A DNA stretch of 64,000 nt from an uncultured Acidobacteriota bacterium. GTDB lineage: Bacteria > Acidobacteriota > Blastocatellia > RBC074. The notes beneath the pieces were generated by a model. That model saw only the letters and a list, made by a program, of their open reading frames with translations. It was not told the DNA's origin and did no database searches. The stretch's first letter is position 1. Each line of letters starts with the position of its first letter. A program made the position numbers and the translations under genes. Location of the stretch: positions 320,001-384,000 of the forward strand of contig CAWCKY010000001.1 of assembly GCA_963796275.1 (NCBI GenBank). Direction: 5' to 3'. Positions 2,069 to 59,392 of this stretch are shown piece by piece.

Positions 2069-3622
2069 TCATTGCAATCTACTTTTGACGGATTTACCGA
2101 TTGCGACGTGAAAGATCGCGCTCTTGCCTGCTGCGTGCGGCGAGAAAAATTTGATTACGTCGTCGTCATAAAACGTAAGTCCGGTCGCTCCGAACCCCTG
2201 GCCATAGGCTGCCAGGTACATCTTCCCTCCGATAATTCCGGCCTCAAGCTGCACTGCCCGATATCCGCGATTGCCATAGCGTTCAAGCACCGATTTCAAA
2301 TCGGCGATTAAGAACGCGGTCGCGCTCGCGTCTTCAGGCAGTTTCTGTTCGAGGCCGAGATACCCTGCCTCCTCGCGAAACGAACCTGCTTTGAGTAACT
2401 CCAATGCCCGGGCATCGCGGTGGAATACATAAGCACCTGGCTGCAACCCTTCTATCGCATGCACAATCAAATAAATTTCATTGAGATGCGTATGCGAGGG
2501 ATCGAGGAAATCGGCTGGGATCGTTTGCAGGGAGCTGAGAAGCCAGGTTGAGAATTCCCCGAAACTGATCGCCTCGCCGCGTGCGAAACGCCGCGTCGAT
2601 CCGCGCTTTAAAATTACGTCCCCGAGCTGCGTGGGCGACGCATCTCCATCGCTCAAAGGCACGAGCGGGATCATATCTCCTACCGGATCAGGGAGGAGTT
2701 GCTGCGGTGTGTCTCCGCGCCATTCCCGGACTTCGGTCTCTGTAACGAGCGATGATGAGTTATGAATCTGGCGCATCACGGGATAGTCAATTTCATTTGG
2801 TGAAAGAGGCACGGTTTCGAAATTGAGCTGTTCGAGCTCCGCCGGCGGTTCCGGCGGCGGGGCTGAAGTACGCCCCAGCGCCACGAGCGAAAAGGCAACT
2901 TCGCGCGCAGAATCGATGCTGAGCAGCCGGTTCACCTGCTCATCCACAAAACCCATCACGACACGCGCCGGAAGGTCGAGCGCCGCAGCCGTTGCGAGCA
3001 AGTTAGCGAGGATAGTGCCATTGTCCCATCCGAAATGCCGATAAGTTCGCGCTTGATATTTCCAGGCATTGCGCCAGTAAGTGCCAGTGCAGATTATCGT
3101 TACAGGAGCAGCGGCAATGGCGGGCTCATTCCCCGTCGCCCTGGCGATCAAGCCGCGATAGTCGCCAGCCCGCAACCGCCGCAAAGACAAGTCCTGAGGG
3201 TTATAGTGATAAATGCCGGAGGACAGATCGGGCAGATCGCTGCAGACAAGATACAATTCTATTTCGTAGAGCGCACCTGTGCAGGAGGCCGCGCGAAAGA
3301 GCATCTCTCCGCCCGGATTTTTTTTGATCTTTGTGATTCCGGCCGAATAATAGAGCAATTGAACGAGCGTGCTCAGATCGGGGACTGTTCCGGCTGCGAG
3401 GTCGGGGTAGGTCGTTGAGATTGCCGCGAGCGCCGGCATCGCTAACGGCGGCGCTTCGCGAGGCAGTACTATAGGACTGAGCGTTGAATAGATTTTAAAT
3501 GGCAGGGGTTTGTTGGACCAATCGAGGAAATGAGCATTTCGGCGAATGCTCCAGAAGGAATGTTTCGTTCCGTCGTGATAGGTCCAGGCCGCTACCAGAT
3601 CGCGGTTATTCATACCGCTCAT
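2069..3622 (-). CDS. SagB/ThcOx-family two-domain nitroreductase-like dehydrogenase
   Basis: RAASCTGALYEIELY, WKYQARTYRH and RYGNRGYRAVQLEAG motifs in a duplicated nitroreductase fold. Confidence 0.85.
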   Translation of the reverse strand: MSGMNNRDLVAAWTYHDGTKHSFWSIRRNAHFLDWSNKPLPFKIYSTLSPIVLPREAPPLAMPALAAISTTYPDLAAGTVPDLSTLVQLLYYSAGITKIKKNPGGEMLFRAASCTGALYEIELYLVCSDLPDLSSGIYHYNPQDLSLRRLRAGDYRGLIARATGNEPAIAAAPVTIICTGTYWRNAWKYQARTYRHFGWDNGTILANLLATAAALDLPARVVMGFVDEQVNRLLSIDSAREVAFSLVALGRTSAPPPEPPAELEQLNFETVPLSPNEIDYPVMRQIHNSSSLVTETEVREWRGDTPQQLLPDPVGDMIPLVPLSDGDASPTQLGDVILKRGSTRRFARGEAISFGEFSTWLLSSLQTIPADFLDPSHTHLNEIYLIVHAIEGLQPGAYVFHRDARALELLKAGSFREEAGYLGLEQKLPEDASATAFLIADLKSVLERYGNRGYRAVQLEAGIIGGKMYLAAYGQGFGATGLTFYDDDVIKFFSPHAAGKSAIFHVAIGKSVKSRLQ

Positions 3623-24165: not shown

Positions 24166-25782
24166 TCATCTATCGCTGGCTCCCGCAATCAGATTGATCA
24201 ATCGTTCGCGGCGTGATCTTACCGGGGCTTCCATAACCACAAACGAAAGGATATAGAAGCCCAGACAAAAGATCAAAATCAGACACGAGACCCACCAGTA
24301 ACGCATATGCATGGTCTGATCCAACCGATCGCTGAAAAAGACCGCCACCCAGAGCGGGACGCTGATCCCGATGATGACCACCAGATTTGCGCAGAATGAG
24401 AGGCGGCTGTTCCACATCGCGTCGAAATTCAATCTTTTCGGCGAGAAGACCGAAGTCCACAATCCGATCGCGTTGAAGAGAAAGAGGCTCGCCACCGCTA
24501 TGCTCAGTATCATGACGATCATTCGCCAGGTGATCGTTTCACCGGCATAAAATATCAGCCACAAGCCAAACGCGACCATGACGGTGATCGTGCGTAACAA
24601 CAGCGAAGCCAGGCTGCCAGCCCGCAGAGCTTCCGCCAATGAGATCGGCAGAATGGCATAACGGCGTATGCCGGCATCATCGTACCCGAAGAGGTTGAAC
24701 ATGAGCGCCGCTCCGGTCGCGCTGCTCAAAATGAAAAAGATTGAGAGCGATAACAGAAAAACTCTATCCTGCCAATTCCACGGTAAAATATATTTTCCCA
24801 TCAGCACGATGATCGGCGAAGTTATCAGGCTGAAGCGGATGATATTTGAACGCAGATGATAACGAAGGGATTTACTAACTATCGGCCCATATCTGCCGCT
24901 CATTAAATTCCCGAGTTGATCGATCAAATCGCTACGGATGACAGTACCCGGAGCGGCGGACCGCGTGCTCGGGGAGCGCCGCTCGAGTCTCGTCAGACTA
25001 TAAGCCAACGCCGCGCACCAGATGAACAGCAGGCCAGTGCCCCCCAATTTGAGGGAGCCATCGCCCGACATCATTGCCGCCGCTGCACCGGGAGGAGTCA
25101 ATTGCAAAAATTGATCGAGCATAAGCCATATATCGAATCGGTGGGCGGCGACCAGCGACGCAATCGCCAGCGGACCGAACGAGACCAGGAGAATCACCAG
25201 AGCGCTGAATAGAGCGGTTCCGCTGCGCGTCTCTACTATAACGCCGGCGAGCGATAGCAAGACCGAGGTCGCCAGGTAACTCACGATGATGAAGAAAATG
25301 GCGGCGGGGAATACCGTCACAATCGATCCATGTCCGGTCCACGCCAAGCCGATCGCCAAACCGAATGCGCCCGCAACAACGATCAACCATACCGGATCGA
25401 GCAACCCGATCGCGTGCCGCACCAAAAATCGCTCCTGAGAATTCAATGGATAATGGCGGAGGGCTTCTTCCGAGAAAGCCGAGCGCGCGCCCAGGCCGAA
25501 GAGAATGCTCAGCCCGACCCCGTTAAAGAACAGCATCGTCAGACCCCATCTCGCGATCGATTCTCCTTCTCCCAACTCAATCGCGCCTTGCGCCATGCCC
25601 CAACCGACGAGCGAAAAAAACAACAGGCTGATTCCGCCGAGCAGGTAAAGAGCGAAGAAGAGTGCCATCCGCCCATTACTGGTGCGGGCTTGCGCCCAGA
25701 TAAGACGATAGCGAAGCCGGATCAGTACCCCGAATTTACGCGGGAATCCTGCCCAATTGATATGTTGCGAATCTACGTGCAC
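24166..25782 (-). CDS. Putative ABC transporter permease (multi-TM)
   Basis: Many hydrophobic segments; directly upstream of the ABC ATPase. Confidence 0.75.
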   Translation of the reverse strand: MHVDSQHINWAGFPRKFGVLIRLRYRLIWAQARTSNGRMALFFALYLLGGISLLFFSLVGWGMAQGAIELGEGESIARWGLTMLFFNGVGLSILFGLGARSAFSEEALRHYPLNSQERFLVRHAIGLLDPVWLIVVAGAFGLAIGLAWTGHGSIVTVFPAAIFFIIVSYLATSVLLSLAGVIVETRSGTALFSALVILLVSFGPLAIASLVAAHRFDIWLMLDQFLQLTPPGAAAAMMSGDGSLKLGGTGLLFIWCAALAYSLTRLERRSPSTRSAAPGTVIRSDLIDQLGNLMSGRYGPIVSKSLRYHLRSNIIRFSLITSPIIVLMGKYILPWNWQDRVFLLSLSIFFILSSATGAALMFNLFGYDDAGIRRYAILPISLAEALRAGSLASLLLRTITVMVAFGLWLIFYAGETITWRMIVMILSIAVASLFLFNAIGLWTSVFSPKRLNFDAMWNSRLSFCANLVVIIGISVPLWVAVFFSDRLDQTMHMRYWWVSCLILIFCLGFYILSFVVMEAPVRSRRERLINLIAGASDR

Positions 25783-25858: not shown

Positions 25859-27181
25859 TCAACATTGCAAATGCGAACGATCGATTGTGAAGCCGTCCAG
25901 ATCGCCCAAAACCGTAACCGCCATTTCAGCCGGTTGGAATATCTGGTTTGCCACCCGGCGCACATCCTGCGCCGTGACCGCGTCAACGTTTACGATGATC
26001 TCATCGGGTGAGATGAAGCGGCCCAATGTCATCTCCTGCTGCGCCAGCGAACTCATGCGTGAGGACGTCGATTCGAGATTGAGCATCAAGGATGCTTTCA
26101 ATTGATCCTTGTTGCGCTCTAATTCTTCTTCCTCAATCAATTCTGATTTGATCCGGACTAGTTCTTCCATCGTAGCTGCAACCGTTTCGTCAAGCTGTTC
26201 GGTCGAAGCGGCGGCATAAATGCTCATGTAACCGCAATCACTGAATGGGTTCGCGGAGGCGAAAATGGTATATACGAGCCCTCTCTCCTCACGTATCGCC
26301 TGAAACAGCCGCGAGCTCATTCCACCGCCTAGAATGACGGACAGGATAGTGGTTGTATATCGGTCTTCGCTAACCGACGAGGGGCATGGCGAACCTATCA
26401 CAAGATGCGATTGCTCGAGCTCGCTTTTGTGCCTGAGGGTTATCGGAGCGGCCGCGACTGGGGGCGTATAGCTCAAGGGAAAGTTGCGCGATCTCATATC
26501 TCCCAAATAGGTCTGCGCCAGATCGATCAACTGGTCATGTTCCAGATTACCCCCAGCCGCAATCACCAGATTGTCCGGCGCGTATAGTTCTTCGTAATAG
26601 GATCGCACGACATCGGGTTTAAATGTCAAAAGTGATTCCGGAGTGCCCAGGATCGGACGTCCGAGCGGGTGGTCCGGATAGAAGTTCTCGCAAAAAATGT
26701 CGAAGATGTAATCATCAGGCGTATCCTCAACCATTTTGATCTCTTCGAGGATGACATTGCGCTCTTTTTCCAGTTCGGATGGATTGAATGCCGGATCGGT
26801 AACCAGATCCGCCATAAGTTCAAAAGCCCGCGGAAGATGTTGATCGAGAACTTTGTTGTAGTAGCCGACGATTTCGCGGCCGGTGAATGCATCCAGATGC
26901 CCGCCAAGCGTGTCGGATTCGGCCGCTATTTGCGCCGCTGAGCGCCTGCGCGTCCCTTTGAAGAGAGCGTGTTCGATGAAATGCGTGAGTCCATGCCGGC
27001 GGTTATCCTCATTGCGCGAGCCTCCTCGTAAAAAAACGCCGAAACTCACCGAACGAACATGCGCCACTTTCTCAGAGACAATCACGAGACCATTATCAAG
27101 CCTCGTTTTGCGTACATCAAAATTGAGATTCGTTGATCTCTCCTGAGTCGATCTTCCATCAGTGCCTGATTTTGATTCCAT
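25859..27181 (-). CDS. M16 (pitrilysin-family) zinc peptidase
   Basis: Inverted zinc motif HFIEH and [23 protein letters not shown] at 27181 preferred over TTG 27202. Confidence 0.95.
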
Positions 27182-27433
27182 TCGCCCATCATACGACAGC
27201 AACTCTTATCGCCCCAAACCTTTATTAACGGGACATAAAATCCCGATGCTTTTAAGTAGTTATACCTAGGAGGAATATGATTGGTGTCGTCAATTGTTGA
27301 CAGGGACATGCCTTCCATGTCCACAATATTAGACATCGATGCTGGTGATTAGAAATCCAAAAAAATGAATTGGGGATGATAAATCACTCTGTTTTATTTA
27401 TTTATACATATTGGAGCTTTGCGGGGATGCTTA

Positions 27434-27449
27434 TGGCACGGTCATTGCT
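27434..27449 (+). promoter_or_regulatory. Sigma-54 (RpoN) -24/-12 promoter
   Basis: TGGCACG-GTCA-TTGCT matches the consensus TGGCACG-N4-TTGCW exactly; predicted +1 near 27460. Confidence 0.85.
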
Positions 27450-27648
27450 AAGAGTATATATCGTAAAACAAAAAGAACCGGGTAATCTTCAAGGTTCGAG
27501 AATTCATTTTGCAAAAATTAAACCAGACGGAAGGATCGTTACGGGCAGCTCGAGTTTACGGGTTTGACCTCACAATCGACACGGCTTCGACGCGCCGCGC
27601 GGTTCTTCCGAAACAGGTAGATGGTTTGGAGCGCTGCTCCCAAGGGAA

Positions 27649-28391
27649 TGTAGTGATCGGTTAAAGAAAAGGACACGGGGGTCGGATTTAGCCGGTAACT
27701 ACAGCTTCGATTCGCAGGTTACGCCACGCAGGGAACGGGGCACACTGTTTGGCGTAACTTGCGAATCGGCCGAAAGGCTGGGCTACGAATAAATTCCCTG
27801 AGGTAGAGCCCAAGATTTTTGAGTTATTGTTCTTGCGGTTTTGAAAGATCTTTGATTCTCAGTCGGAAATACGGGATAGATGCTCTATTGGATTTTGAGA
27901 ATCACAAGTTTCGATTCTCAGGTTGCTCTGCCTGGAGAACGGGGCACGCCAGGTGGTGCGACCTGAGGATCGATACCTAGAATTGAAAATTCTGTAATTG
28001 ATAATTCTTTGAAAGATAATCGTCGAGCGCATCGCTCCGATTTGAGATTGTAATTGTCAGTTGGAAAAGACACGGGGGTCGGATTTTAGCTGTCAATTAC
28101 AATAGCGATTCGCAGGTTACGTCATTCGGAGAACGGGGCACACCGTGTGGCGTAGCTTGCGGATCGAACAAAAGAGTTGAGAACACAGCAGTCTTTAGTC
28201 CGTAGTCTTTATACACAGCATATACACAGATATAGAATTTGACGATTTGGGAGCAGGGCTCTCAAAGGTAATGTAGTGATCGGTTAAAGAAAAGGACACG
28301 GGGGTCGGATTTAGCCGGTGACTACAGCTTCGATTCGCAGGTTACAGCATACAGGGAACGGGGCACACTGTTTGGTGTAGCTTGCGAATCG
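27649..28391 (+). repeat. Four tandem ~200-nt units, each hairpin A + hairpin B
   Basis: Units start at 27649, 27853, 28047 and 28272. Units 1 and 4 match at 75 of 76 nt (27647-27722 vs 28270-28345). GAACGGGGCAC is present in all four B loops. Confidence 0.92.
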
Positions 28392-28611
28392 GTTGCATTT
28401 TGAGCAAAGATTTTGGTAGAGCGCGGTCCCCACACTGCGCTTGTCACTCTTAAGGCTGAAACCCACTCAGCCCGAATGTGGCATCGAGCCCTCACAATCA
28501 TGTCCACAAATAATGTCTTCTCCCGCTACTAAGGGCTTCTCCTACTTGAGGCCCAAGGGCTCATGTGGTTTTTTCCGTAAGGCACTGATGTGCAGTGAGG
28601 GTCCTCACCCC

Positions 28612-28667
28612 AGCAATAATGGGCTGCTAGCAGTCTGAAAAGGCTACTGGCAGCCCAATGTTGCTTT
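28612..28667 (+). terminator. Long terminal hairpin, probable 3' end of the ncRNA
   Basis: AGCAATA-A-TGGGCTGCTAG-C-AGTCT[GAAA]AGGCT-A-CTGGCAGCCCA-A-TGTTGCT followed by only a short T run. Confidence 0.6.
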
Positions 28668-28742
28668 ACGGGCGCTATGTTATACTGCCTTGCGCAATTT
28701 CAGCATAATGACTAAGTATAACGATTAAGCATTAATCACTCG

Positions 28743-30011
28743 ATGACTAGGTTTCTTCACATCGCTGACATTCATCTGGGCATCCGGCGTTACCGTTCCG
28801 AAGATCGAGCACGCGACTTCTTTCTCGCATGGCGGGACTGCATCGAACGCTATGCCCTCGCCGAAAAAGTATCGTTCGTGCTGATCGCCGGCGATCTCTT
28901 CGATGCCCGCAAGGTCGAGCCCCAGGCGATGAATCAGGCGATGTTCTGCCTCTCGAAATTGCGCGACGCCGGGATACCCGTCGTAGTCATTGAGGGTAAC
29001 CATGACTGTCACGAGGCCGAGAAGCGATTCAGTTGGTTGCGCAGCCTATCGCAATGGGGATTCATCCATCTGCTCGAACCGATATATGGTGAAAGCGGCT
29101 TGAGACTGCTCCCGTGGGATGCCGATTCCAGGACAGGATCATTCATCGACATAGACGGCGCGCGCATCTTCGGCTCGATCTGGTATGGATCGACTGTCAG
29201 TCAGGCGCTCCCAGGGTTGATCGATGAATTGCGCAACCACCACAGCGACCGCCATTTTAACATAATGATGCTCCATACCGATGTCGAGGGCCAGCTCAAC
29301 CGCCCGATTCCCGCGCTGACGGTGTCGAAGATCAATGAACTTCGGTCATATATCGACTACCTGGCTCTCGGTCATACTCACAAAAACTTCGAGATCGACG
29401 GCTGGGTGTACAACCCGGGTTCGCTCGAGGCTTGCAATGTTGACGAATATGCGAATGTGCGCGGGGCGTATCTGGTGGAAATCAAAGATGGCCGGCATAA
29501 CGCTCAACTCGTCCGCGATTATCATCAGCGGCCGGTAGTGCGGCTGAGTATCGATGTGAGGGGGCGCGCTACGCCTGAAGAACTGCACGAAGCCTTGTTC
29601 GATCAGCTTCGCTGCCAATTAACTCCTCATAATCCGGCTGAAAACGGTTCTCCCGCTCCGGTCATCGAGCTTTCATTACGGGGTCATCTCGGATTTAAAA
29701 ATTCGCTTCTCGAAATAAATCGCATTCGGGATGAGATCAAAGTAGAATTCAAACCGCTCCTCACGATCGTAAGAAATCAGACTATCCCCATCGAATACGC
29801 GGTCGCCGCGGGAATCAGCGAGCATATTTCGCGTGCCGAACGTGAACGCATGGTGATTGAAGATTTGATCGCACGAGACACGCGGTTCCGCGAGCAAACA
29901 ACCGTCATGGCCGGACTGGTACTTGAAGCCAAGCGCCTGGCGCTTACTGATGAGCTGCCTTCAAAAATTGTCGAACTGATCGAAGAACGTCTCGCTCAGT
30001 CTGGAAATTAG
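28743..30011 (+). CDS. Mre11/SbcD-family DNA repair exonuclease
   Basis: Phosphoesterase motifs [27 protein letters not shown] and YNPGSLE. Confidence 0.92.
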
Positions 30012-33640: not shown

Positions 33641-36616
33641 GTGAACCCACGAGCAGGCACAACTAAGGTCACAACGCGTACGATGCTGATGCTATTCGTC
33701 GCGTTCCTCGCGCTGGGGGCCGGCGCGTTCAATTTTCGTGACCGAATGATTCAAAAGACTGTTTACACCGATGGTGTTACATGGCGGGAAGATGCGGATT
33801 TTGGCGTGGTGGCCGATAAGGTCGAACCCGGAAGTCCCGCATCCCGGGCGGACGTCAGACGGGGAGATACGCTGATCGCAATCAGTCCCACCGGTTCGGA
33901 GAATGATTTTGAAGTAATTTCCCAGGCACAGGAAGTTCAGATATACCTGGATCCGGTGCGAGAACAGGTTCAACGGGGCGATACGCCGACGCTCAGCTAC
34001 CTGATAGAGCGCCGGAATGATGCAGGTGATACGGTGATCAGCCAGGGGATAGCCGATCTGGATGGGCTGCATGCGCGCGAGCCTCACCTTATGCGTGAGC
34101 TCTATCTGGCGATAATCGGGCTCATCTATCTCGGTCTGGGCATCTACTTCTTGTTGAGGCAAGATCGCGCTCCCTATATCAGGCATTTCTTCATCATCTG
34201 CCTGTTGGCATTCATCTGCCACTTCTACTCTCCGACCGAGGAGATGCGCACCCAATTCGACAAGGGAGTAGACTTCACCGACTTCGTTGCTCTGATCCTG
34301 CTTGCGCCGTTATTCATCCATTTCGCTGCGATCTATCCGGCGCGTTATCACCTCTTCACGCGCCGCCGCTGGTTGGCCGCCCTGCTCTACATGCCGGCGA
34401 TACTGCTGATCGGCGCCGAGATCTGGCTGCGCATCGCGCGGCTGCGTGAATTGGTTCCCATCTCTGCGGTCAATCTGAGAAACCTGCTCACGCAAGTCGA
34501 GTACATCGCCTTCGCAACCTCGATCATCGTCAGCGCAATACTGCTTCTTAGCACATTCATCCGGACGCGGTCGACAGTAGTGCGGCAGCAGTTGAAGTGG
34601 GTAATCTGGGGGATGGGAGTTGCCGGAGTCGCATTCGGCATCTTCTATGTGCCCTCGCTCTTCACCGTCTCCTCGTTGGTCGCCAGGCAAATGCTCGCCC
34701 CGGAGATACTGGTGTTGATAGCGATTGCGCCCCTGGTGCTGATCCCGCTGACCCTGGGATACTCGATTGTGCGCTACCGGCTGACGGATGTGGACGTAGT
34801 GATGAGACGATCATTCACATACATCTTTGCCACATTGTCGGTAGCGACTACCTTCGGCTCGGTGATGGCCGTCAGTTACGAGTTCCTCGGATCCATGCTT
34901 TCACAGGAAGCGACGATGCTGATCGCCGCGACCATCATGACGTTCATCGCTATGCTCTTCGCGCCGGTAAAGAACTGGATCCAGGAGCGGATCGACCGGA
35001 TATTCTATGGCGAAAAATATGATATTCGCGTAACGATGCAGGATTTCGGCCGAACACTATCATCGGCGACCGAACTGGAACCGCTGCTCGAGAGCCTCAT
35101 CAGACGATTGAAGGCGGTCTTCTCGGTGGAACAGCTCGCGATATTTATCGAAGACCGGAATGACCCTTCGGGGTTCAGGCTTGCGCGCGCCGAAGGGATT
35201 GCCCACGAGATCGCGCTTCCAGCTGATTTCCGGCAATTACTGCGCGAAAAGAGCAGCACTACAGGGATCGTCCGCGTAGCCAATCTCGATTCACCCGACG
35301 ATGAAAGTTTGTTTTTCCAATCAACGCCGGACCATATCTTCAGCTATTACGTGCCTTGCGCGGTTCGTTCGCGCATCGCGGCGGTGATAGCGCTCGGACG
35401 AACGGTTGATGGCACTCTGCTTTCTTCGGAAGACACGGACCAGCTGCGAGCGATCTCCGGTTATGTCGCGGTCGCCATCGAAAATGCGCTCTTGCTCGAA
35501 GATCAAGCTCAGCGCGCGGAAGAGATGGCGCGGCTGAAAGAGTTTAACGAAAACATAATCGAATCGATCAACGTCGGCGTCCTGGTGATCAACCTGCAGG
35601 GCCGTATCACGAACTGGAACAGCGCGCTCGAAGCAATTTATGGGCTTAAACGGGTAGAAGCGATAGGCCGGCGTATCACACAGGTCTTCCAACCCGAAAT
35701 GTTGAAGGCCTTACGCGCCTTGATGCAGCGGGCGGAATGGCAGAAGGGTGAGCCGGTAAACGTTTACAAATTCCGCGTGTCATCGGTCGATGGCCGCGAT
35801 CTGACGCTGAACGTATCTCTCGCCGCCTTGCAGAGCAAGACGGAAGAGGTTGAAGGAACGCTGGTCGCCATCGAAGACGTGACCGAGCGGATGAAACTCG
35901 AGGAACAGGTTCAACAATCCGACAAGCTTTCCTCGATCGGTCTTCTGGCAGCCGGAGTGGCGCACGAAGTCAACACTCCGCTGACCGGAATTTCATCCTA
36001 TTCGCAGATGCTGATGCAGCAGGTTCCCGAAACTGATCCGCGCCATCAATTGCTCGAAAAAATCTATCGCCAGACTTCGCGAGCTTCATCGATAGTCAAT
36101 AACCTGCTCAACTTTTCGCGCGTTAGCGACGCGCGGTTCGTAATGATCGATCTGAACCGCGTGCTCGACGATACGATACAGCTTCTCGAATCACAGCTCC
36201 GCAATACTCAGATCGAGGTAGTGCGCAGCTATGACGCTGAACTGCCCCTCGCCCCGGGCAATGCGCCCAAGCTGCAACAGGTCTTTATGAACCTGATCCT
36301 CAATGCGCGCGATGCTATGCCGGAGGGAGGCCGTCTTGAAATATCGACCGAGGCGAATGCGGATTCAGTCTTAATCAGGTTCCGCGACTCGGGTATGGGC
36401 ATCGATCCGGAGCACCTCTCGAAAATTTACGACCCATTCTTCACGACCAAGCAGATCGGTAAAGGCACGGGGCTCGGACTCGCGGTGAGCTACGGAATCA
36501 TCAAAGATCACAGCGGCCATATTGACGTTGAGAGTAAGCTGGGTGAAGGGGCGCTCTTTATTATCACGCTTCCACAGGCTACGGCGAGACAACAACTAGC
36601 TACCGCGAGCGATTAA
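33641..36616 (+). CDS. Membrane sensor histidine kinase (PDZ-like, multi-TM, GAF, PAS, HisKA/HATPase; NtrB-like core)
   Basis: H-box [14 protein letters not shown]-box [20 protein letters not shown] and [17 protein letters not shown]. Confidence 0.93.
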
Positions 36617-55078: not shown

Positions 55079-55094
55079 TACAAATCTTGTGCCA
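55079..55094 (-). promoter_or_regulatory. Probable sigma-54 promoter of the glycine-zipper gene
   Basis: Minus strand TGGCACA-AGAT-TTGTA (GG-N10-GT variant) about 50 nt upstream of the ATG. Confidence 0.5.
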
Positions 55095-58492: not shown

Positions 58493-59392
58493 ATGAGGAG
58501 AACGTCAATGAAACACTCAATGCACAACTGGATGAGGCCCGAACCAGTTGAAACGACTCTCGAGCGTCTGCATAGATTTGGCTACGACAGCATAGAGATA
58601 AGCGGTGAGCCTGCTCGCCACGATACTGACGAAGTGCGCCGATTGATGGATAAGTACGAGATCGAATGTTGGGGAACCGTAACATTGATGACTGAGGGAC
58701 GCGACCTGGTGCATCCCGATAAGTATGTCCGAGCTGGCACAATCGCTTATATGAAGGATTGCATCAAGATGGCTAGAGCTCTCGGCGGCCATATGTTCTG
58801 TATCGTGCCATCGACCGTCGGGAAGGTGAAACCCATCGCATCGGCTGACGAAGAATGGAGATGGGCTGTCGAGAGTTTGAAAGAAGTCGCCTCATATTCC
58901 TCGGACCACGGCATAATACCTGGCGTCGAACCGCTCAACCGATTTGAAACCTATCTGATCAATCGCCATGACCAGGCATTACGTTTAGCCGACGAAGTCG
59001 GCAACGGGCTGCAAGTCGTGCTCGATTGTTTTCACATCAACATCGAAGAGTCCGATCCAATGCAGGCTATCCGCAACGTGGGGAGCAGGCTGCTCGATTT
59101 CCACATCGCCGACAACAACCGCAAACCTGCTGGTCAGGGGAAATATAACTGGACGGAGGTGATCGAGACTCTCAGAGAAATAAATTATCAGGGCCATTTG
59201 ACGGCTGAGTTCGTATTGCCAATCGATAGCACCCCGCTTGCTTTGCAGAGTGAAAAGCGTGAGAGCGATATGGAGTTCGCTGAGGCCGATCTGAAATTCA
59301 TCCGCAACCTGCGCTCGGGTTTGATCAGCGCTGCCGATTACGATCGGGCAGTCGAATCAAATATTAAGCATTTGAAATCGGTTGGAGCATGA
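58493..59392 (+). CDS. Sugar phosphate isomerase/epimerase (ketose 3-epimerase-like TIM barrel)
   Basis: EPLNRFETY, LDCFHINIEE and FHIADNNR motifs. Confidence 0.88.
   Translation: MRRTSMKHSMHNWMRPEPVETTLERLHRFGYDSIEISGEPARHDTDEVRRLMDKYEIECWGTVTLMTEGRDLVHPDKYVRAGTIAYMKDCIKMARALGGHMFCIVPSTVGKVKPIASADEEWRWAVESLKEVASYSSDHGIIPGVEPLNRFETYLINRHDQALRLADEVGNGLQVVLDCFHINIEESDPMQAIRNVGSRLLDFHIADNNRKPAGQGKYNWTEVIETLREINYQGHLTAEFVLPIDSTPLALQSEKRESDMEFAEADLKFIRNLRSGLISAADYDRAVESNIKHLKSVGA

Follow-up and report, generated by a model that had tools for sequence, protein, structure and literature searches.

What occupies the 1.54-kb non-coding gap between an M16 peptidase open reading frame (ORF; 25859..27202, minus strand) and an Mre11/SbcD-like ORF (28743..30011, plus strand) in the genome of an uncultured Acidobacteriota bacterium of the class Blastocatellia? 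The gap lies in a stretch of 64,000 nucleotides (nt), hereafter the window, that corresponds to positions 320,001 to 384,000 of contig CAWCKY010000001.1 (assembly GCA_963796275.1); positions given here are counted from its first letter. A sequence-only reading had placed at 27434-28667 a sigma-54 promoter, four two-hairpin units, a C-rich domain and a long terminal stem, and this observation is confirmed as a whole. The further proposal of a structured, non-coding RNA with a sigma-54-type promoter is backed by comparative evidence (covariation and conservation of the promoter). We conclude that the element is a genuine, previously undescribed, family-restricted RNA gene of this kind. Shown here are its structure and the conservation of that structure, the architecture of the promoter, a restricted distribution and the absence of coding potential.

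The gap had been described as free of any credible protein ORF, and the longest ORFs there are indeed only 65 amino acids (aa). Across 54 distinct loci from related genomes, the longest ORF ranged from 46 to 184 aa on varying strands, and no consistent coding signal was found. The absence of a described family also held: Rfam cmscan of the window returned 0 matches at the gathering score, and a search of the 1.2-kb region at E up to 10 gave just five chance-level matches (13-20 bits) to unrelated small nucleolar RNA, microRNA and small RNA families. We identified no description of such an RNA in Acidobacteria or Blastocatellia, nor of its loop 9-mers, in open-access papers (PubMed Central, PMC) and bioRxiv. 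Acidobacteria are a dominant soil phylum, and regulatory RNAs in these bacteria appear to be little described.

Paired hairpins between conserved end domains

All eight hairpins of the four proposed units fold where the sequence-only reading had placed them.

27649..27768, plus strand: unit 1, with hairpin A at 27649-27703 (apical ACGGGG closed by GAC/GUC, z -4.8)
27708-27768, plus strand: hairpin B of unit 1, with a 13-nt loop containing ACGGGGCAC (z -9.6)
27853..27973, plus strand: unit 2, with a degenerate hairpin A (ACGGGA, z -2.4) and an intact hairpin B (z -7.1)
28047..28166, plus strand: unit 3, with hairpins A (z -6.8) and B (z -7.1)
28272..28391, plus strand: unit 4, with hairpins A (z -5.8) and B (z -7.8), 94% identical to unit 1

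The seven ACGGGG copies and one ACGGGA copy reported for the apical regions were recovered at every position: ACGGGG starts at 27675, 27735, 27939, 28072, 28133, 28298 and 28358 on the plus strand and ACGGGA at 27871, and there are none on the minus strand. With 2959 copies of ACGGGG on the two strands of the 9.46-Mb source genome (18.9 Mb), about 0.19 would be expected in 1234 nt, and the seven found there have a Poisson probability of ~2e-9. Seven of the eight hairpins have z values from -4.8 to -9.6, and 0 of 200 shuffled sequences folded as well. Hairpin A of unit 2 (27853-27904) is degenerate and weak, with 3/200 shuffles as good; three close relatives likewise have three A motifs versus four B motifs.

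Hairpin A has a covarying stem of 16 bp and, besides a purine-rich internal loop, an apical ACGGGG with GAC/GUC as its closing pairs and GGAU after it. Hairpin B, which starts four bases 3' of hairpin A, has a stem of ~22 bp and a 13-nt loop with ACGGGGCAC. The two hairpins are always adjacent and similar in length, with few indels in their stems, and one nearly invariant 9-nt motif is common to these differently built structures. Folding of the whole region gives -479 kcal/mol for the plus strand and -370 kcal/mol for the minus strand (a difference of 109 kcal/mol). Because the plus-strand fold is far stronger, we consider this strand to be favoured by G-U pairs.

Covariation was evaluated first in an alignment of 55 two-hairpin units from 19 loci, in which RNAalifold predicted 40 pairs, 37 of them with compensatory double changes. 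The covariance model built on this alignment (R1) places the four units here at 27633-27772, 27835-27976, 28033-28170 and 28256-28395, with scores of 128.5, 64.7, 125.5 and 124.6 bits, respectively. A search of 67 distinct loci with R1 recovered 234 units at E up to 1e-5, including three weak matches on the opposite strand. The following figures are from the best 150 of these 234 matches (146 distinct units); ranking by score gives preference to intact loops, and degenerate units do exist, unit 2 here among them. Standard pairs fill 97.1% of cells, and 35 of the 40 pairs have changes on both sides. None of 500 shuffled controls attained any of five pairing measures, and pairing fell to 22-41% when partners were slid by 1-3 columns. 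The loop sequence ACGGGGGUC is present in 145/146 units, as is ACGGGGCAC. A GGA in the 3' internal loop of hairpin A (ACGGGGGUCGGA) is found in 140/146, and the GGA in the hairpin B loop varies. Homologues in Acidobacteriota, for which a covariance-model search had been suggested, keep both the pairing and the loop motif. The idea of a single repeated motif shown on many hairpins is also supported, with one to eight units in different genomes.

The units are enclosed by conserved domains, for which we identified the following features.

27460..27641, plus strand: structured 5' domain of ~180 nt, with a short conserved start, a stem-loop, an outer helix, an inner helix and CCUCAC at 27568
28420..28611, plus strand: C-rich 3' domain, defined by alignment of 66 distinct tails
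28420-28441, plus strand: hairpin with a UCCCCACA loop, in the 3' domain
~28442-28484, plus strand: two-tier hairpin with a CCCA loop, in the 3' domain
28486-28562, plus strand: helix GAGCCCUC/AGGGCUC, within which are an unpaired GUCUUCUCCCGCUA and a CUUCUCCU-loop hairpin
28581-28593, plus strand: small hairpin in the 3' domain, followed by GGGUCCUCACCCC at 28599-28611
28611..28667, plus strand: long terminal stem-loop (-42.6 kcal/mol, z -5.5)

The C-rich 3' domain and terminal stem had both been noticed from the sequence, and both were verified. Absent from that account were the activator sites upstream of the promoter, the structured 5' domain, a GGAGC/GCUCC hairpin and the recurring CCUCAC and CUUCUCCC motifs. 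The outer helix of the 5' domain pairs GGAAGGAUCG with a partner near 27606-27612; by eye, its sides change together between genera, and it was not called by RNAalifold. The GGAGC-loop-GCUCC hairpin (27629-27641) directly precedes the first unit and is invariant in 15/15 sequences. For the 3' domain, 20 sequences yielded 50 predicted pairs, 28 of them with compensatory changes. Its single-stranded C-rich motifs are UCCCCA, CCCA, GUCUUCUCCCGCUA, CUUCUCC and CCUCACCCC. CCUCAC occurs in 2-3.4 copies per RNA on the plus strand and almost never on the opposite strand, and its count does not rise with unit number. The terminal stem-loop is probably an intrinsic terminator. The U tail that follows it is a weak UUU here and GCUGUUUU in many relatives. 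A simple scan for sigma-70 promoters and terminators did not call the terminal stem and gave nothing useful.

Promoter, distribution and expression

The region upstream of the RNA contains four features.

27285..27302, plus strand: first activator site (TGTC-N10-GACA palindrome), 149 nt 5' of the promoter
27318..27335, plus strand: second activator site (TGTC-N10-GACA), 116 nt 5' of the promoter
27379..27408, plus strand: conserved AT-rich block that separates promoter and activator sites, from an alignment of 58 distinct upstream regions
27434..27449, plus strand: sigma-54 type -24/-12 promoter, TGGCAC-N5-TTGCT

The promoter had been called perfect, and it is the sole exact match in the window. 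From the usual promoter spacing, transcription would start near 27460. The AT-rich block is a candidate IHF-type bending site. When one mismatch is allowed, the window contains 5 sigma-54 sites (versus 1.73 expected); the four further sites, each with one mismatch, are at 3005-3020 (minus strand), 35410-35425 (plus), 55079-55094 (minus) and 59227-59242 (plus).

Conservation of the promoter was assessed in 64 distinct loci, obtained from 121 oriented loci after removal of 40 duplicates and 17 loci with <700 nt upstream of the array. The -24/-12 element is kept in 64/64, at 118-556 nt (median 244) upstream of the first loop. It is strict in 55 and has one or two mismatches in the other nine, at the same place. 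At least two TGTC-N10-GACA sites (with at most one mismatch) are present at -120 to -200 in 62/64 loci, and 50/64 have two exact palindromes. The combination is rare in the source genome as a whole: there are 71 such palindromes, and of 243 sigma-54-like sites just 4 are preceded by one at a distance of at most 260 nt. About 47 strong genes for enhancer-binding proteins were identified in this genome, none inside the window.

The only other strong pairing of the palindrome with a good sigma-54 promoter in the source genome is at C3:1391669/1391826, where the palindrome is 157 nt upstream. This second locus (C3:1391669-1392189, plus strand) is in a 610-nt gap without a plus-strand ORF, and has downstream a conserved long-stem element rich in C-rich motifs and GACCGCAACCUCC. 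The element was identified by blastn in 8/15 family relatives, one of which is flagged as unpublished. Among the source genome and seven relatives, the sigma-54 promoter is present in 8/8 and the palindrome, ~150-160 nt upstream, in 7/8. The relatives, but not the source genome, encode a 64-aa Flp-pilin-like ORF between promoter and element (Pfam Flp_Fap, E 2e-5, 24.6 bits, below the cut-off). Searching the source genome with an nhmmer profile of the 3' domain found the RNA itself and not the second-locus element. Thus, the likeness is one of style and short motifs, not shown homology. The second locus may encode a co-regulated second RNA, and it suggests a small regulon connecting the RNA with surface pili.

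The RNA locus is single-copy in the source genome (9.46 Mb, 7 contigs). Among 40 relatives searched by blastn, 18 of the 24 that belong to the family have it, and in each genome most of the matching pieces cluster at a single locus. R1 matches 76/87 family genomes (1-8 units each), 51/55 of those with at least 90% completeness and at most 5% contamination, and 37/40 family genomes in an even sample of the class. Outside the family, there was one weak R1 match (28 bits) among 110 genomes of eight other families of the class, and 0/149 genomes matched in a phylum sample. The exact two-loop pattern, searched in one genome per species over 185,579 species, occurs in 73 stretches, 61 of which are titled Acidobacteriota, Acidobacteria, Blastocatellia or Blastocatellales and 12 Heliomicrobium or Heliobacteriaceae. 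Eight of the latter 12 metagenome-assembled genome records share the same upstream genes, and therefore we take these labels as taxonomic mis-assignment. Viral contigs and plasmids gave 0 matches to the RNA. No cultured member of the host family was among the named records encountered.

From promoter to terminal stem, the RNA is ~560-1710 nt long (562-1710 nt in 54 distinct loci). The variable number of units between fixed 5' and 3' domains fits a role for valency, and shifts in repeat number between genera in this family-wide RNA of 0.56-1.7 kb constitute a natural experiment in it.

All 19 matching sequencing runs contain small shares of locus words (0.05-0.18), and four runs were compared with the locus at 85% likeness. 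A soil metatranscriptome (run X14) yielded Logan contigs of 85-99% likeness; their depth is 135-455 across unit 1 and 224-1222 across 28320-28574. Depth in DNA runs X1 and X2 is roughly even, at 2-24 across the whole stretch. There is little or no cover in X14 at 27300-27605 and 28575-28800; these intervals are poorly conserved between relatives, so that low cover says nothing about transcript ends. Such depths in an RNA library, from hundreds up to a thousand, fit an abundant transcript. They hint at abundant expression and suggest that, within that sample, the RNA ranks with the more abundant transcripts of these bacteria. One X14 contig (depth 453) links 28211, in the spacer before unit 4, by way of 29 other letters to 27628, at the start of unit 1. 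It fits relatives with another order or number of units.

Proposed function and competing explanations

What might such an RNA do? An enhancer-binding protein acting at the two TGTC-N10-GACA sites would switch on the sigma-54 promoter, and the transcript would consist of the structured 5' domain, one to eight two-hairpin modules (four here) and the C-rich 3' domain ending in the long stem. Within each module, two long stems similar in length would lie next to each other, each with an ACGGGG loop. The modules could serve as repeated binding sites, and the RNA would then be a multivalent decoy (sponge) that captures a factor specific for the loop. An RNA-binding protein is the most likely factor, one that is dimeric or tetrameric and could bridge hairpins A and B. 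Induction of the RNA would then lower the free concentration of the bound factor.

We favour the decoy because the invariant motif is on adjacent hairpin pairs, is repeated one to eight times between constant ends, and would be transcribed conditionally, in dependence on an activator. We place at about even the chance that the locus (27460 to ~28667, plus strand) is an independent, trans-acting, structured regulatory RNA gene, specific to one Blastocatellia family, that functions in this way. Titration and the nature of the binding partner are the parts of this proposal that we infer. The invariant loop motif could serve as bait for a new RNA-binding factor, and the promoter with its pair of activator sites provides a handle on the signalling pathway.

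Several known systems resemble this one in part. GlmY and GlmZ are RNAs of ~150-200 nt, whereas the RNA described here has one to eight modules, a length of 0.56-1.7 kb and invariant loops, and no Rfam match to them was obtained up to an E of 10. In promoter design they agree, with a -24/-12 element, TGTC-N10-GACA sites upstream and an AT-rich block between (the IHF site being represented by the AT-rich block only); the second RNA locus of the source genome has this design too. TGTCN10GACA is the consensus described for GlrR/QseF at the glmY/glmZ sigma-54 promoters, which need IHF too (PMC3045617). The GlmY decoy has two adjacent stem-loops, as does the module here, and each is gripped by one C-terminal-domain dimer of the RapZ tetramer (PMC9841335). 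RapZ, with both N- and C-terminal domains, is encoded in the source genome in an rpoN-hpf-rapZ-EIIA(man)-HPr cluster (C3:1419567-1423031; the C-terminal part of rpoN was seen). The enterobacterial rpoN operon has the same gene order. RapZ is attractive as a partner because GlmY, from the same kind of promoter, sequesters it and because the RapZ tetramer holds two adjacent stem-loops. However, RapZ is described as recognising RNA shape and backbone (PMC9841335), which would leave the invariant loops unexplained. If RapZ were the partner, the RNA would be an independently evolved, multimerised GlmY-like decoy.

CsrB, RsmY and RsmZ likewise display one short G-rich motif on many hairpins, vary in copy number between species and follow a decoy logic. 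Their motif is A(N)GGA versus ACGGGG here, CsrA was not found in the source genome, and there is no Rfam match. Convergent evolution with the GlmY/RapZ and CsrB/CsrA decoy systems is possible. CrcZ and CrcY of Pseudomonas are sigma-54-dependent decoys of Hfq/Crc with repeated unstructured A-rich tracts. The RNA here resembles them in its sigma-54-type promoter and its repeated motifs. Hfq is present in the genome, and hairpin A has a purine-/A-rich 5' internal loop that is partly conserved, but the invariant elements of the RNA are G-rich apical loops, and there is no Rfam match. Dual-hairpin targets or sponges of ANTAR proteins have two short hairpins, each with a hexaloop in which position 1 is A and position 4 is G. 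Here an ACGGGG hexaloop is possible in hairpin A, but hairpin B, with its loop of ~13 nt, does not fit that description.

A broader form of the proposal is that the RNA represents a new class of large modular regulatory RNAs and is the hub of a sigma-54 regulon of this Blastocatellia family (with a GlrR/PilR-like activator, the Flp-pilin-like gene and the second C-rich RNA), and that its modules sequester either an unrecognised loop-specific RNA-binding protein or the RapZ tetramer. We offer this version tentatively, as one that may well prove wrong.

A number of observations weigh against a decoy. No binding partner was found among the candidates examined (CsrA, ANTAR and ProQ). For CsrA, PF02599 had no match in the source genome (94.7% complete) and matched 5/24 family genomes; the control was positive in E. 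coli, B. subtilis and T. maritima. ANTAR (PF03861) matched 0/41 genomes, weak evidence in that 14 control genomes were also silent. ProQ was not found, and Hfq is encoded in the source genome. Genome-wide, 6.7% of ACGGGG copies are in hairpin loops, versus 4.7-6.9% for four G-rich control hexamers and a higher 16% for ACCCCG, in which the Gs of the loop motif are swapped for Cs. Thus, if a protein is titrated, its target sites in the cell do not plainly resemble these hairpins. Nor are the loop 9-mers, with 35 and 46 genome copies, enriched outside this locus. In addition, the conserved C-rich motifs (CCUCAC and CUUCUCCC) could pair with G-rich sequence, and the many invariant positions and structured ends resemble large architectural RNAs more than simple sponges. 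Finally, the case for expression comes from contigs of relatives in a single RNA run.

The alternative that survives best is an RNA-RNA mechanism, in which the loops act as seeds or G-tracks for C-rich RNA, with the array either processed into loop-kissing small RNAs or sponging C-rich small RNAs. We consider this unlikely, although there are precedents. NrsZ of Pseudomonas aeruginosa (~226 nt) is sigma-54/NtrC-dependent and is described as having three like, single hairpins with an identical loop which, after processing, kiss one mRNA at the rhlA leader (PMC4253122). Features in common with NrsZ are the sigma-54 promoter (with an NtrC-family activator there), tandem hairpins with an identical loop motif, and spacers (PMC4253122); it differs from the RNA here, in which double-hairpin modules of ~120 nt are set between large conserved domains. 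Pairing between G-tracks and C-rich sequence has also been published for the small RNAs RsaI and RosA/RoxS. Candidate C-rich partners are the RNA's own 3' domain, with its several conserved single-stranded C-rich motifs, and the C-rich RNA at the second locus, which has the same activator site, a sigma-54 promoter and a conserved C-rich structured element. Read from the sequences, GGGGGU could pair with ACCUCC given one G-U pair. However, complementarity by eye amounts to just 4-6 bp, RNAs with more G-loops do not have correspondingly more C-rich motifs, and sequences complementary to the loop 9-mers show no enrichment in the genome. Both sides of the proposed pairing are invariant, and thus covariation cannot test it. 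Unrestricted duplex folding of leader versus tail gave meaningless whole-length duplexes and was dropped.

The RNA could instead be a large architectural RNA that folds or multimerises through contacts between G-loops and C-loops into a particle or ribonucleoprotein scaffold, and is not a decoy. Its length (~560-1710 nt), its structured and conserved 5' and 3' domains, the many invariant loop positions, and the similar lengths of hairpins A and B with few stem indels are in keeping with this idea. Against it, a range of one to eight units between genera that have the same end domains is hard to square with a fixed architecture, and sigma-54 control implies conditional, rather than housekeeping, expression. 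We regard this explanation as more doubtful than RNA-RNA pairing.

The possibility that the 1.2-kb RNA is a 5' untranslated leader, with the terminal stem as an attenuator of the Mre11/SbcD-like gene, appears very improbable. That gene is co-directional downstream in 37 of 54 distinct loci (those with at least 1 kb downstream), 155-676 nt after the last loop, and the U tail after the terminal stem is weak in the source genome, as a leader would allow. In the remaining 17/54, however, the downstream gene is another, e.g., a NUDIX hydrolase. Two genera without the RNA keep the Mre11/SbcD-like gene beside a ketoacyl synthase, behind a 120-nt spacer with the same TATACT box that is found here downstream (3') of the terminal stem. 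The persistence of gene and box without the RNA, and the varying downstream gene, favour a separate RNA gene. Depth in the RNA run falls from 224-1222 on the 3' domain to 0-6 from 28575 on, a weak indication since these are contigs of relatives. The upstream M16 gene is also variable, being present in 15/31 loci and elsewhere replaced by a phosphoribosyltransferase or ketoacyl synthase.

Type III toxin-antitoxin loci such as ToxI-ToxN consist of tandem repeats, then a stem-loop, then a gene, and the layout here is superficially similar, but a repeat array of that type, a mobile-element remnant or a functionless repeat can be practically dismissed, given that the locus is single-copy and syntenic across the family, that its stems are maintained by covariation, that viral and plasmid matches are both 0, that the downstream gene encodes an Mre11/SbcD-like phosphoesterase or NUDIX hydrolase and not a ToxN/AbiQ-type toxin, and that the sole PADLOC match among the neighbours is unconvincing (E 6e-4, 16.8 bits).

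Neighbouring genes and other observations

Adjacent to the M16 peptidase is a 538-aa ORF (24166-25782, minus strand) without a Pfam, NCBIfam or PADLOC match. It is kept beside the locus in 30 loci, with 44-63% identity, and may be a divergent, inactive M16 partner.

In the source genome, glmS directly follows glmU (C3:1188330-1190191, minus strand), and its match is split between two reading frames (profile positions 1-243 and 235-607), which suggests a frameshift or assembly error. The 45-nt glmU-glmS spacer has just generic anti-Shine-Dalgarno complementarity, with no conserved link to glmS. A 7+6 bp match of this spacer to the second RNA is not conserved in relatives, and we take it as chance.

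The scan for ACGGGG also brought to light a tandem array of the octamer GGCAACGG, with at least eight copies, at C2 ~528726-528800.

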